The notes under the pieces were generated by a model. It saw only the letters and a program-made list of their open reading frames with translations. It searched no databases and had not been told where the DNA came from. The position numbers and the translations under genes were made by a program. From Octopus sinensis (taxonomy: Eukaryota): a DNA stretch of 64,000 nt. Below are positions 4,417-41,583 of the stretch, one piece after another. The DNA is taken from assembly GCF_006345805.1 (NCBI RefSeq), contig NC_043013.1, positions 39,184,001 through 39,248,000 on the forward strand, read 5' to 3'. The number at the start of each line of letters is the position of its first letter. The first letter of the stretch is position 1.

Positions 4417-4578
4417 TAGTTTATAAATTTCTAGACCACTTTTCATTTATATAGTGCAGGCGGTGTTGGTGTCAAGAATTATGCTTCAGTTGCAACAGAA
4501 TATAGTGAAACGCCGATGTGCCAGCTGCATACTTGCAAACAACTGTACGATTTCTCACCGATTGCAATGTAAAATAAA

Positions 4579-4978
4579 CTAGCAGTATCCCCCGGCGTTG
4601 CTCGGGTTTGTTTCGACCCTTTAGAATTGAAATTTTTGAAAAGTAAAAATGTTGAATGATGTAGCTTGTTATTCTCTTTAAGTGAACATTTTTCTGGTTG
4701 AAATACACCGAAAAATGGCGACACAGCAGTCGCAGTGAAAAAATCGTAAAAAAATAGGGATTTTCATAGATAAAAAGCACCTTTTTGATGTAAATAATTT
4801 TTGGTTTTAACATGGTCCGACTTGTATTCTTTCTTATACGGAAGGGAGAGCAAGCCTTCTTCTATCACACTCTCAATTTTGGTCAACTTGCGCCGCAGGG
4901 TCTCGGAGGAGACAGTGTTAGCTGAAGGCTACCAAACCTGCCACACACAGCACAACTTCAACTTTATATAGAGAGAGA
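4579..4978 (-). mobile_element. Non-autonomous Helitron (second subfamily)
   Basis: Same termini on the minus strand, near-identical to 30043-30435. Empty site is visible in the paralogous introns at ~24730 and ~32475. Confidence 0.8.
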
Positions 4979-5112
4979 TAAATACGCAGCTATGTAAACT
5001 GTTATATATACTTATTTCTTTATTGTCCACTGGGAGCTAAATAGAGGGGACAAACAAGGACAGACAAAAGGATTATGTCGATAACATAAGTGATAAAAGA
5101 AGCAGTATTTAC

Positions 5113-5205
5113 CTGTCTTGAAGTAGAGCTTACGAAATTTATCAGAATAACAATTTTTAAGTATTACAGCATTATCTGCATCTCGATATGTTTCGAAGGT
5201 ATAAT
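5113..5205 (-). CDS. Multi-PAN gene, exon 11: linker C, module 3
   Basis: 93 bp, TTTCTAG acceptor and GTAAAT donor, phase 1-1. YTFETYRDADNAVILKNCYSDKFRKLYFKT. Flanking intron is homologous to that of the other two C exons. Confidence 0.85.
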
Positions 5206-5344
5206 CTAGAAATCAATAAAACATATTTATTCATATCGTTACACGCACATATATATGCATAACTACCTTTTCACCCTCTCTCTCTCTCTCTCTCTCTCTC
5301 TCTCTCTATATATATATATATATATATATATACATATATACATA

Positions 5345-5525
5345 TATGTTTTAAAATATATTTTATTTTTTATTTATGATTTGGTTTATGCCTATCATTG
5401 TTTGAATTACATAATAGTGGTTTTTCTCTAATTTATATATATTATATATTTATATTGAGAAATTTGATTTAATACTAAATTGAATTTTTGCCTGTAAGTT
5501 TGGAGTTATACTCCCTAATATTATT
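5345..5525 (+). mobile_element. 3' terminal fragment of a Penelope-like element
   Basis: Similar to 36900-37090 (AATAGTGGTTTT...CCTGTAAGTT...CCCTAATATT), flanked by microsatellites. Confidence 0.5.
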
Positions 5526-5603
5526 ACACACACACACACACACACACACACACACACACACACACACACACACACACACACACACACACACACACACACA
5601 CAT

Positions 5604-6600
5604 ATGTATATATAATGGGCGTGATGTCTGTCTGTCAGTCCATCTTTCCGTTTGTCCGTCTGTTCCCTCTTCGCAGTCAAACGGTTGGACCAATAGCTAC
5701 GATGTTTTTCGGGATAACGAAGGAGGTAATAAGGAAGGTTTTTAGTGTAAAAAAATGAGAAAAAGTATGATTATTTAATGGATATTGAGTTTTGCTTTAA
5801 TAAATCACCTTAGATATTTTTTGTTAAAATTCCAGCGACGAGGATTAACTCTAGATTTCCCTTCCTTATAATTCGTGAATTTAGAGGGTTTAGATTTGCG
5901 ATGCTATCCCTTTATTTCCCATCGTAGAGGGGCAGATTTGCTATCTTACTATAATAGGCGTTATGTCCGTCTGTCCGTCTCTTTGTTCCCTCTTCATGGC
6001 CAGACGTCTGGATCAGTGGTTACGATATTTTTCGGAATTACATAGACGGTCGTCGGAAGGTTTTTAGCATTAAAGAATCAGAAAGAATGATTATTTTGTA
6101 GATTTTTTTTGAATTGATAAACCACCTTCGCATTTTTATAAAAAATTCACCGACCACAAGTAACTCCGGATTCTCATAGTATAGTTCGTGGCCCCATCAT
6201 AGATACGAAGGGGTTCGTAAAACCGGTTAATTGCGAAAATAAGTGTGTCAGTCTGGAGCAGGATTCGAAACAGCTAATCGAAGCAGCTGTTGTTTACATC
6301 AGTTTTGTCAATCAAAATAACCCATGGTGTCTGAACATCCAGATATTATTTGCATAGAACAGTGAGAGGTAAGTCTTAGTTTGATGTTTTTGCAACTCTA
6401 AAGATTCCACTCGCGCATTCAAAGCAAACAAAGCAGAGGGCCAGACTGTAGACCGTGTAGGTATGTTTTTACCCACTTCGATGTTTACACGCTACCAGTT
6501 TTACGTCACTATGAGTAAAGCAACGGACTCCAGTAATTTGGAAATTAGTGTCGACCAAACAGAAAATAAAATCTACAAAGAAGTTTTGTAATCATATTGA
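5604..6600 (+). mobile_element. Helitron derivative(s) with a Pif1-helicase C-terminal remnant at 6421-6591
   Basis: KANKAEGQTVDRVGMFLPTSMFTRYQFYVTMSKATDSSNLEISVDQTENKIYKEVL* matches Helitron helicase motifs V/VI and the NxVYKEVL end. Two Helitron-type 5' heads at ~5605 and ~5943. Confidence 0.75.
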
Positions 6601-39164: not shown

Positions 39165-39638
39165 ATTCTTTTATTCGTTTATTTGTTTCAGTCATTTGGC
39201 TGCGGCCATGTTGGAGCACCACTTTACCTTAAAGGGTTTTAGTCGGAGAAATCGACACCAGAACTTGTTCTTTGTAAGCCCAATACTTATTCTATCGGTC
39301 TGTTTTGCTGAACTCTTAAGTTATGGGGACATAAACACACCAGCATCGGTCTCAAGCGATGGCGAGAGGACAAACACACACACACACTCACACACACACA
39401 CACACACACACACACACACACACACACACACACACACACACACACACACACACACACACACACACAGAGGATGGATGGTATTCTATTCAGTTTCCGTCTA
39501 CCAAATCTACTCACAAGGGTTTGGTGGGCCTGGGGCTATAGAAGAAGACACTTGCCCAAGGTGACACGCAGTGGGACAGAACCTGGAACCATGCGATTGG
39601 GAAGTAAGCTTCTTACCACACAGCTATGGCTGCGCCTT
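39165..39638 (-). mobile_element. Family B CORE-like SINE, older copy
   Basis: Diverged match to the other copies, with an internal (CA)n. Confidence 0.85.
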
Positions 39639-39779
39639 ATGGTGAAGATTGTCCAACAAGTTCTGTATCAGCCAATCGTTATCGTTTATTAGATTCGACT
39701 TCTTTCTATAACATAATTTATATATCAAGCTTTCCTTATATGATTTGGATGAAAGGAGCAGCGGTGGAGGTGAATGTGG

Positions 39780-40320
39780 GTAGACGCGAGTTTGCAAAAT
39801 AACTCTGTCGCTATTCTGCCTGTGGAAAACTTGACTTTTGTTTCCAAAAATACAGTGCTAGTTTTTGAAAAAACTAGACATAAATTTTATATTGGACTTA
39901 AAGCCATAGTTATTAGAATAACAGTCACGGAAATGCAAGAAGTCGATTAAACTCTGTTGTGATTCTTCCCAGACACAAAAGACGTCATCAATGAATCGTA
40001 AGCAGGGTATTGGTTCATGACCATGCAGGGATTTGGATGTCTTCAGTGACTGAGTCGTGAATGTTGTCATGAAGACAATAGCGAAATTAACTGCCATGGG
40101 TACCCAATGCGCAGCCCCTCGTCTGGTGGTAAAATTTAGGTCCAAACTTCATTGTGTTACTTTGTAACACAAACTTCAAAAACTTACAGAGGATATTAGA
40201 TGGAATACTTTCGTTTTACCGTTTTTCGAAGACATTCATGCATGCTTCAACCCCGTTATCTTTTTCATTTTACCAGTTACAAAATTGAAAACTGATGATG
40301 TCATTCTGTCAGAATAAGAA
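39780..40320 (-). mobile_element. Penelope-like reverse transcriptase remnant
   Basis: PMAVNFAIVFM...CLRFIDDVFCVW...NIKF, PLE-type RT motifs with frameshifts. Confidence 0.7.
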
Positions 40321-40477
40321 CGCAGGATTCCCTTGTTCATGTTTTGAATTTCTCTGCTTCTGTAGTTGTATTCATTTTACATTTTGAACTTGTAAAAGAC
40401 AGACGATCTGTTGAAATATCGTTCAAACCATTGAATAAATAATCTATTACAAAGTACATCGAGTTCTTATTGTCTAT

Positions 40478-40660
40478 GGCAGAAATGCTTAGCGGTATTT
40501 TCGCCCGTCGCTACGTTCTGAGTTCAAATTCGGTCGAGCTCGACTTTGCCTTTCATCGTTTCGGGGTCGTTTAAGTAAGTACCAGTTACGCACTGGAATC
40601 GATGTGATCCACCTTATCCCTTCCCCCAAATCTGTGGCCTTGTGCTTCCAGTAAAACGGA
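40478..40660 (+). mobile_element. SINE family A, partial
   Basis: GCAGAAATGCTTAGCGGTATTT...GAGTTCAAATTC...GTACCAGTTACGCACTGG. Confidence 0.8.
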
Positions 40661-40801
40661 TTATTATTATTATTATTATTATTATTATTATTATTATTAT
40701 TATATTATTATTATTATTAGTAGTAGTAGTAGTAGTAGTAGTAGTAGTAGGAGGAGGAGGAGGAGGAGGAGGAGAAAGAAGAGGAAAAGGAGAATATTCA
40801 C

Positions 40802-41065
40802 GGCTTGTATGTTCTCTCAGGTGATATAAATCAATGTCTAATTCAGTCGCGTCACTTTGTTGATGTTTGCTGATTCCGTAGAATCCACATTCAGATTCCG
40901 TGTTGTTGAATTGAAAAGTTGTACACGTAGCTGATGTGTAACATTTCTCTGCACATTCCTCAACAGAAGCGTTATTAAATATCTCGAGCATATTCTCTGC
41001 GTCAATTACAGCGGCACTGATTTTAATAAATTCGTTCTTGTATATTCTTCCTTTAACCGTTGCAT
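40802..41065 (-). CDS. Multi-PAN gene, exon 3: PAN/apple domain type A, module 1
   Basis: 264 bp, CAG acceptor and GTGAAT donor, phase 1-1. DATVKGRIYKNEFIKI...SVEECAEKCYTSATCTTFQFNNTESECGFY...DLYHLR shows the PAN C-x3-C-x5-C-x2-F...C-x2-Y pattern. Confidence 0.9.
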
Positions 41066-41583
41066 CTGTTGTATATGAAAAAAAAAAACAAAAAAAAACA
41101 AAAACAAACAGAATAACATAATTTTAAAACATAAGAAGAAATTCGGTTAAAATACAAATTGAAAATAAAACTATGATTTGCCTTACTAGTTTGAGAAAAT
41201 TTTGTTTTCTTTTTAATTAAATAGTAATCCCGAAAGCATACAGAAAATGTTTTGTTTTTCATTTCCATCAGGGAATTTTAAATTTTATTATTCTTTAGAC
41301 AACGATTAATATTGTTGTTATTTTAAGTTATGCAGCGAAAGATCCTTGTTAACCAGGCGTATAATCAAAGTTGTTCCAACCTTGACTATTCCAATTAGTG
41401 TACAGCAAGTGCCTGGAAGTTTATCTGTAAATGGTGTACAAACTTCTATGCATTAGTCTCCAGGTGCTGTAAAATACCACTGCATTCGTGTCCCTGCAAA
41501 CATCAGTACACTTGATTTTCCATGATATAAAACCATCAGAACGTTTTTCCTACCCTTGTTTTAACAAGCATAAGTACTGTTCT

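Follow-up and report, generated by a model that had tools for sequence, protein, structure and literature searches.

Three copies of a phase-1 PAN exon cassette, introns included, in the Octopus sinensis gene LOC118766780

How does a gene come to carry the same ordered set of exons three times over? The question is raised by LOC118766780, a gene of the octopus Octopus sinensis, which lies in a 64,000-nucleotide stretch of contig NC_043013.1 (positions 39,184,001–39,248,000; hereafter "the window", always at its full length). On the minus strand, the gene contains three consecutive copies of a three-exon cassette, A-B-C, of which exons A and B encode PAN-type domains. An earlier reading of the bare sequence (the original prediction) proposed that the cassette had been triplicated at the DNA level together with its introns, that C serves as a linker, and that the symmetric exon phases would permit whole domains to be skipped in frame. 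Here, we follow up each of these proposals by computational analysis. All positions are those of the window, and lie on the minus strand unless otherwise stated.

The A-B-C cassette and its introns

Enumeration of phase 1-1 frames bounded by AG and GT recovered nine module exons, in the order A-B-C three times. The first module consists of A1 (40802–41065; 264 bp, a four-cysteine PAN domain), B1 (38694–38924; 231 bp, the body of a PAN/apple domain) and C1 (32578–32667; 90 bp, with one cysteine that likely closes domain B1). The second consists of A2 (29672–29932; 261 bp, a PAN domain), B2 (27888–28118; 231 bp) and C2 (25784–25870; 87 bp, one cysteine), and the third of A3 (20871–21128; 258 bp, an intact PAN domain), B3 (9508–9738; 231 bp) and C3 (5113–5205; 93 bp, one cysteine). 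As the original prediction had it, all nine exons are symmetric (phase 1-1) and open, with GT/AG ends, and exon B measures 231 bp in every copy; A varies between 258 and 264 bp, and C between 87 and 93 bp.

The similarity between modules continues into the introns. A self-comparison of the dot-plot type, with tandem repeats masked, gave three collinear, same-strand match sets (8.4–10.0 kb, 26.4–28.2 kb and 37.8–39.2 kb) and also paired 30.4–30.8 kb with 41.2–41.6 kb; many dispersed-repeat matches were returned besides. Intron-only alignments were then scored against 50–200 shuffles. For the intron downstream of B (co-duplicated blocks at 37773–38693 for B1, 26410–27887 for B2 and 8382–9507 for B3), scores of 534–729 compare with null maxima of 49–59, at 78–80% identity over 621–889 aligned bases. 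Upstream of A1, the block at 41066–41577 is homologous to 29933–30034 plus 30433–30789 upstream of A2 (score 299 versus 57; 73% identity over 355 bases), and to 21129–21210 upstream of A3, which retains only ~80 bases of it. Behind C, co-duplicated blocks lie at 32414–32577 (C1), 24615–25783 (C2; made up of 25722–25783 plus 24615–24770) and 4459–4578 (C3), with the motif-bearing part scoring 72–120 versus 36–39 for shuffled sequence; directly behind the C donors, two of the three intron comparisons, both involving C3, did not rise above shuffles. The common blocks are split by later insertions at 4578–4982 (displacing the C3 block), 24768–25721 (two insertions, interrupting the C2 block), 26634–27033 (approximate ends; a dispersed repeat interrupting the B2 block) and 30039–30437. 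The claim of homologous non-coding flanks thus stands, with collinear introns at roughly 73–80% identity and far above shuffles, and that of a multi-kilobase, phase-1 cassette duplicated in tandem within one gene is supported.

These data bear directly on whether the modules might be separate genes, an assembly artefact, or a by-product of common mobile elements. The last of these draws on the many intron–intron matches contributed by dispersed repeats. The collinear blocks, however, lie only beside exons, where contig depth is 0–12 as opposed to thousands for repeats; the copies differ at 27–50% of exon bases and match their orthologues by position; and the whole array has one signal peptide and one terminal exon (see below). 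We regard this explanation as largely refuted, and scarcely credible.

The original prediction had also pointed to a repeated block at ~4560, 24725 and 32468. A 20-base motif occurs exactly three times in the window, at 4559, 24723 and 32467, within the blocks downstream of C3, C2 and C1, respectively; its chance expectation is 1e-6. Given co-duplication at 64% three-way identity, an identical run of 20 bases has a p value of 0.03–0.05, and the motif is therefore not clearly a functional element. The motif may be a conserved element for intronic polyadenylation, but this is unsupported, given that p value and the loss of the hexamer at C2. Two further readings were rejected: that the motif block, with its stop and hexamer, forms a terminal exon of the plus strand, since its second copy has no open frame, and that the pair 41215–41575/30440–30790 is a signal exon, there being no open frame in common.

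A triplet microsatellite begins at most ~30 bases after each A donor (40660–40801, 29471–29671 and 20687–20870), expanded to a different degree in each copy. Read-through past the A donor would give a Pro/Thr-rich tail, and all three tracts probably go back to a single ancestral seed that was duplicated along with the cassette.

One gene, its PAN domains and exon C

The remaining exons fall outside the span covered by the original prediction (4440–41580), and were located by mapping five gene models (P0001–P0005) onto the window. The coding part of S1 (51950–51977), found by tblastn of O. bimaculoides N-termini, holds the start codon at 51977 and the first half of a predicted signal peptide, and ends in a phase-1 donor. 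S2 (43888–43920; 33 bp, phase 1-1) supplies the second half, with nine of its 11 residues matching P0002/P0005 (E 6e-5). The coding part of D (672–868) is a terminal, four-cysteine PAN exon with a stop codon, and a polyadenylation hexamer lies beyond it at 237. The predicted architecture is hence signal-(A-B-C)x3-D. Joined, the exons give an open frame of 2004 nt (667 aa, zero internal stops), with GT..AG ends in 11/11 introns; the predicted product carries 38 cysteines, 16 N-glycosylation sequons and seven PAN domains, as compared with three in relatives. It is predicted to be secreted, from its hydrophobic N-terminus and orthology. In a Pfam scan of the orthologue model P0005, only PAN families were found, and no non-PAN domain.

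None of the five models contains all three modules together. The O. sinensis model (P0001; XP_036366392.1, 559 aa, a 99% match to the exon B3 query) is without S1, S2, the start of A1 and the whole of A3. The other four belong to the O. bimaculoides orthologue, LOC106882156 (XP_014788215, XP_052830000.1, UniRef A0A0L8FNP5), with P0002 and P0004 being two versions of one accession. The entries for both loci are automatic models, labelled "uncharacterized" or "apple domain-containing". A corrected LOC118766780 model gains the signal exons and A3.

Six-frame scans of the window returned eight PAN-type frames, all on the minus strand. All six frames of A and B match Pfam PAN_1, at E 5e-9 to 5e-4; A1, A2, A3, B3 and D score above the curated cut-off of 21.4, while B1 (21.0) and B2 (20.3) fall just below it, B1 passing PAN_3. 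Model P0005 scores 96.4 bits for PAN_1, in five stretches. In a structure model of the paralogue P0006 (mean pLDDT 59.5), domain A aligns with a plasminogen PAN domain (Z 10.6, rmsd 2.0, 75 aligned residues) and domain B with factor XI apple 2 (Z 8.1, rmsd 2.5, 79 aligned). From this paralogue model, which barely covers D, A and B would have the PAN fold.

What, then, is exon C? In apple domains, six cysteines are bonded C1-C6, C2-C5 and C3-C4. Among the copies, A has four invariant cysteines, B five with a further one in C, and D four. In a comparison of 11 family rows, Argonauta P0012 is alone in having lost the first B cysteine (109), and has also lost that of C (202); P0009 is without both 135 and 157, the second and fifth cysteines. 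The other rows retain these cysteines, though two have no residue at column 202. These paired losses match the C1-C6/C2-C5 pattern, and C therefore likely supplies the sixth cysteine of B. The description of C as a mere linker is thus likely wrong: the cysteine pattern suggests that B and C form one six-cysteine apple domain, with the bond to the C cysteine being inferred. Set against this are three points: each paired loss is a single event, exon C has a pLDDT below 50 in the P0006 model, and the disulfide is not seen there. A, B+C and D all possess the four to six conserved cysteines that PMC9249922 gives as the PAN superfamily core.

If B and C are one domain, skipping just one of the two would leave a free cysteine. 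The folding units would accordingly be A, B+C and D, and the usable skips would be (i) A alone, (ii) B+C, or (iii) a full register such as C-A-B. B1, A2, B2 and A3 each carry one cysteine outside the conserved frame, which could make inter-module or inter-chain links; A2 of O. bimaculoides has a fifth cysteine too, at a different position.

Are the three modules parts of a single transcription unit? C1 is joined to A2 in all five models, and module 2 to module 3 in two (P0001, C2 to B3; P0005, B2 to C3); one signal peptide and one terminal exon serve the whole array. Contigs from four of 24 listed runs (X1, X2, X4 and X8) were mapped with an 80% identity limit to 8,606 bases of the gene, which spans 51 kb. 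No RNA run is among the 24 listed for exon B2; X1 and X4 are guessed to be RNA. X1 and X4 contigs match B2 exactly, from 27888 to 28118, and then run into other sequence; an X2 contig confirms one B2 end, and an X8 contig extends four bases beyond the donor. In the X4 contig, B2 is preceded by 940 letters, which fit, in length only, the 907 coding bases of S1-S2-A1-B1-C1-A2 plus a short leader; in the X1 contig it is followed by 1103 letters, which are compatible with more than one path. It is very likely that S1-S2-(ABC)x3-D is one gene. Three observations weigh against it: three O. bimaculoides models stop after C2; A3 is used by none of the five models and B3 by one; and no exon–exon joint was found among 15 of the 644 joints listed, all 15 of which lie at repeats. 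The full 12-exon transcript is therefore a prediction.

The models raise the possibility that the main products are shorter, with transcripts ending after B2/C2 or skipping module 3, the seven-domain form being rare and A3 minor or recently silenced. Three of the four O. bimaculoides models end after C2, P0005 passes from B2 to C3, and P0001 skips A3; the end of the X4 contig coincides with the B2 donor, as expected of a branch point; X1, X2 and X4 contigs cover the intron bins 27169–27742 behind B2, where an alternative donor or intronic end may lie; and polyadenylation hexamers follow B2, C1 and C3. Against this, A3 and B3 retain their frame, cysteines and splice ends, at neutral odds of 0.1–0.6%; B3 has a counterpart at 68% identity in other contigs (P0008); hexamers occur at 1.6 per kb across the window anyway; and the models may reflect assembly gaps. 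Shorter main products are possible but doubtful, and they bear on isoform use, not on the origin of the cassette. The A3 bin speaks for neither side: it has zero cover in X1, X2 and X8, and a depth of 2.2 in X4, but the mapping output was swamped by repeats and the bin was counted neither way, and A exons, being fast to diverge, may fall below the 80% limit. In weak searches, A3 (homologues of 68–219 aa) gave no match, and B3 (189–2000 aa) gave P0001 as the sole match among eight candidates.

As for the predicted in-frame skipping and variable valency, gene models in two species suggest it (A3 alone, or C2-A3-B3), while no read joint was seen. Both of these skips respect the folding units, the second leaving B2 with C3. 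In two models, B2 is extended by 23 codons to a later donor in both species (27169–27887).

Origin of the three modules

We consider it probable that two unequal-crossover duplications, in an ancestor of the form signal-A-B-C-D, produced the tandem gene with (ABC)x3, and with it a predicted secreted, seven-PAN protein that is likely a multivalent binder. One breakpoint would have lain in the S2-A intron and the other in the C-D intron; since every intron is in phase 1, the duplicated copies joined in frame. Insertions of mobile DNA would then have split the intron blocks common to the copies. The term "phase-1 exon shuffling" used by the original prediction fits loosely: the duplication is indeed phase-1, but it is the intragenic copying of a resident cassette, with no exon taken from another gene.

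Evidence for this origin comes, firstly, from single-module relatives nearby. A paralogue search in a representative set gave 30 matches at E<=0.001, of which 10 were looked up, and returned octopod proteins ordered A-B-C-D or B-C-D: P0006 (LOC106868215), P0014 (LOC106868906) and P0015 are A-B-C-D, while P0009, P0021 and P0012 (Argonauta) begin at B. As to the location of these 10, the contig with the O. bimaculoides orthologue also carries P0006 and P0014, and that of LOC118766780 carries P0011 and P0037. Secondly, the module junction introns (C1-A2 and C2-A3; 2.6 kb and 4.7 kb) consist of C-downstream followed by A-upstream sequence, with no remnant of S1, S2, D or the paralogous terminal exon D' (see below) at E<0.01; the sole short match of this type lies upstream of S1, inside a dispersed repeat. 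The missing signal and D remnants between modules, together with signal-A-B-C-D paralogues on the same chromosome, make internal duplication of one gene the most likely route.

The same chimeric gene could have been reached by another path, in which three whole signal-A-B-C-D genes stood in tandem and were later fused by loss of the inner signal and D exons. Consistent with such a fusion, the locus sits within a tandem cluster of such genes: D' (62787–62983), outside the triplicated gene, is the last exon of the paralogous gene that comes next upstream, the remainder of which lies beyond 64000, and the window is inside a cluster of secreted PAN genes reaching past that point. Further, identity among the A copies (30–33%) is no higher than that between them and the A of P0006 (27–37%), and module monophyly is weak. 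Fusion, however, requires two clean double deletions, and the junction introns hold no S1, S2 or D remnant. The B copies are mutually closer (46–57%) than to any paralogue (20–43%), and the module introns align at 73–80% over hundreds of bases, whereas D and D' align at only 58–65%. We therefore judge fusion of whole genes to be very unlikely. D' is 61.5% identical to exon D of P0006, and its 3' flank resembles that of D (65% over 147 bases).

When did the duplications occur? Orthology with O. bimaculoides holds position by position for modules 1 and 2, plus C3 and D; C2 and C3 both have counterparts there. In the exon trees, each copy pairs with its own orthologue (module 1, 100/100; module 2, 99/97), and so both duplications predate the O. 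sinensis/O. bimaculoides split and the copies have not been homogenised. The trees are less favorable to internal duplication in other respects. The best tree places five modules on one side with a support of 66/86 (unstarred), making module monophyly with respect to the paralogues weak, and the A tree leaves A3 and P0006 unresolved. The order of duplication is conflicting, too: C joins modules 1 and 2, B and A identities favor 2 and 3, and the intron before B favors 1 and 2.

The mechanism itself is ordinary, textbook symmetric-exon intragenic duplication. In factor XI/prekallikrein apple repeats and LPA kringle IV repeats, two-exon units were duplicated within the gene together with their introns; the LOC118766780 unit differs in having three exons and two domain types, and no kringle. 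PMC3632108 reports that symmetric exons are over-represented and that they undergo internal tandem duplication. Gain and loss of valency by duplication and unequal crossing-over is reported for bivalent spider toxins (PMC13172734), in which the duplication is intra-exonic and without introns; nothing in LOC118766780 points to a toxin. The value of the present locus is as a clean example of intragenic phase-1 duplication with the single-module ancestor type adjoining, and it offers two leads: that B+C is likely one domain, and that an octopod gene cluster shows signs of positive selection.

Divergence, possible function and local features

The B exons have diverged by distances of 0.34–0.41, versus 0.29–0.33 for the intron behind B. 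Pairwise dN/dS among copies is 0.76–1.65, with wide intervals. Codon models (187 codons, three sequences, two frequency models) gave an overall (M0) omega of 1.25–1.29. M2a was preferred to M1a (likelihood ratio test statistic 21–23, p about 1e-5), with about half of sites at omega 3.6–3.9; the preference holds for A alone (p 0.001–0.002) and is borderline for B alone (p 0.05–0.06). None of three intron pseudo-codon sets and neither of two wrong-frame sets was significant. In simulations from the modern sequences, each A or B exon, if neutral, had a 0.1–1.1% chance of remaining intact.

The copies have likely diversified under positive selection, a lead and not a result as judged from these codon comparisons. 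After duplication, the cysteine frame would have been retained, with change at many other residues outpacing the neutral rate. Several features count against this: the M0 omega (1.29) is not distinguishable from 1 (p 0.17), the test has three sequences, the A alignment is gapped, and restricting the intron comparison to blocks that align biases it toward similarity.

What might such a protein do? PAN domains mediate contacts between proteins or between carbohydrates and proteins, as described in PMC9249922. Having no catalytic or membrane part, a secreted and glycosylated protein of seven PAN units would function through binding, and fast change is in line with domains that diverge so as to bind partners which vary or themselves change fast, e.g., microbial or prey surfaces. 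We lean slightly toward a role in multivalent recognition or adhesion, in which specificities diverge.

Alternatively, the divergence may reflect relaxed constraint on redundant, spacer-like domains, in a structural, mucus or matrix component. An overall omega not above 1 and wide dS intervals are in keeping with this, and 16 sequons would fit a heavily glycosylated matrix protein. M2a nevertheless beats M1a under two frequency models, where intron controls of similar size show no such effect, and, given that cysteines and other sites are fixed, a mean omega near 1.3 is reached only with sites above 1. Orthologue exons are 61–97% identical, compared with 91% for one paralogue pair, though D' versus P0006 is also low (61.5%). 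We keep relaxed constraint on a matrix or mucus protein as a tentative alternative.

More speculative, and improbable on present evidence, is that an undescribed octopod PAN cluster is under diversifying selection and that LOC118766780 is a combinatorial recognition molecule, whose splice registers (skipping A, skipping C-A-B, or swapping the C that closes B2) and intronic ends yield isoforms of four to seven tuned PAN domains; these may serve in immunity, prey handling or gamete recognition. Were isoform switching true, the gene would be a compact system for studying how domain number and divergence tune avidity in cephalopod secreted proteins.

Known relatives differ from LOC118766780 in informative ways. 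The octopod single-module PAN genes (P0006, P0014, P0009, P0021, P0037, P0011 and Argonauta P0012) share its A-B-C-D order and cysteine pattern, but have one module, and three PAN domains or fewer, instead of three modules. The octopus PAN-PAN-Sushi proteins P0007 (LOC118764742) and P0010, and the annelid P0013, show a similar internal multiplication of a PAN-PAN-X unit, with Sushi as the third element and far more copies (21 PAN stretches in P0007 and 20 in P0013); PAN-PAN-X expansion is thus shown to be common in these animals. P0007, P0010 and P0016 are uncharacterised octopus repeat proteins of the PAN-PAN-Sushi type, of up to 2643 aa. Factor XI and plasma prekallikrein, whose tandem apple domains are the top Foldseek matches, end in a trypsin-like protease, which P0005 is without; LOC118766780 ends with PAN exon D and a stop. 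Two other groups of secreted PAN proteins offer functional parallels: a leech antiplatelet PAN protein that binds collagen (PMC7191736), and the apicomplexan microneme apple lectins TgMIC4 and SML-2 (structure with galactoside, 2yio). They match structurally at Z 7.2–8.4 but at 12–14% identity, and a common fold shows no function. In the open-licence literature, with supplements outside its scope, no paper was found on LOC118766780, its orthologue, or an octopus PAN/apple family; the octopod PAN protein family seems undescribed.

Finally, the window holds a variety of mobile elements. Four insertions of ~400 bases (4033–4417, 4578–4982, 25328–25721 and 30039–30437), presumably Helitron-like, share the end CTAG after a short hairpin; they fall into two sub-types (94% and 89% identity), and three of them lie inside co-duplicated blocks. 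The elements at 24768–25336 and 41586–41963 have terminal inverted repeats (35 bases at 97% and at least 44 bases at 98%, respectively) and are likely non-autonomous DNA transposons. In the A3-B3 intron, 12556–15337 is a tandem array of a 330–550-base unit with TTA repeats, in four copies at 92–99% identity; one 169-base piece is present twice without change, reflecting either a recent duplication or a local assembly problem. Remnants of LINE reverse transcriptases occur among 16685–18133 (plus strand), 49205–50446 (plus) and 59278–60919 (minus), including a 482-codon open frame (Pfam RVT_1, E 1e-28). A Tc3-type transposase fragment at 52555–53043 (plus), ~600 bases upstream of the start codon, overlaps a gap of 100 Ns (52578–52677).

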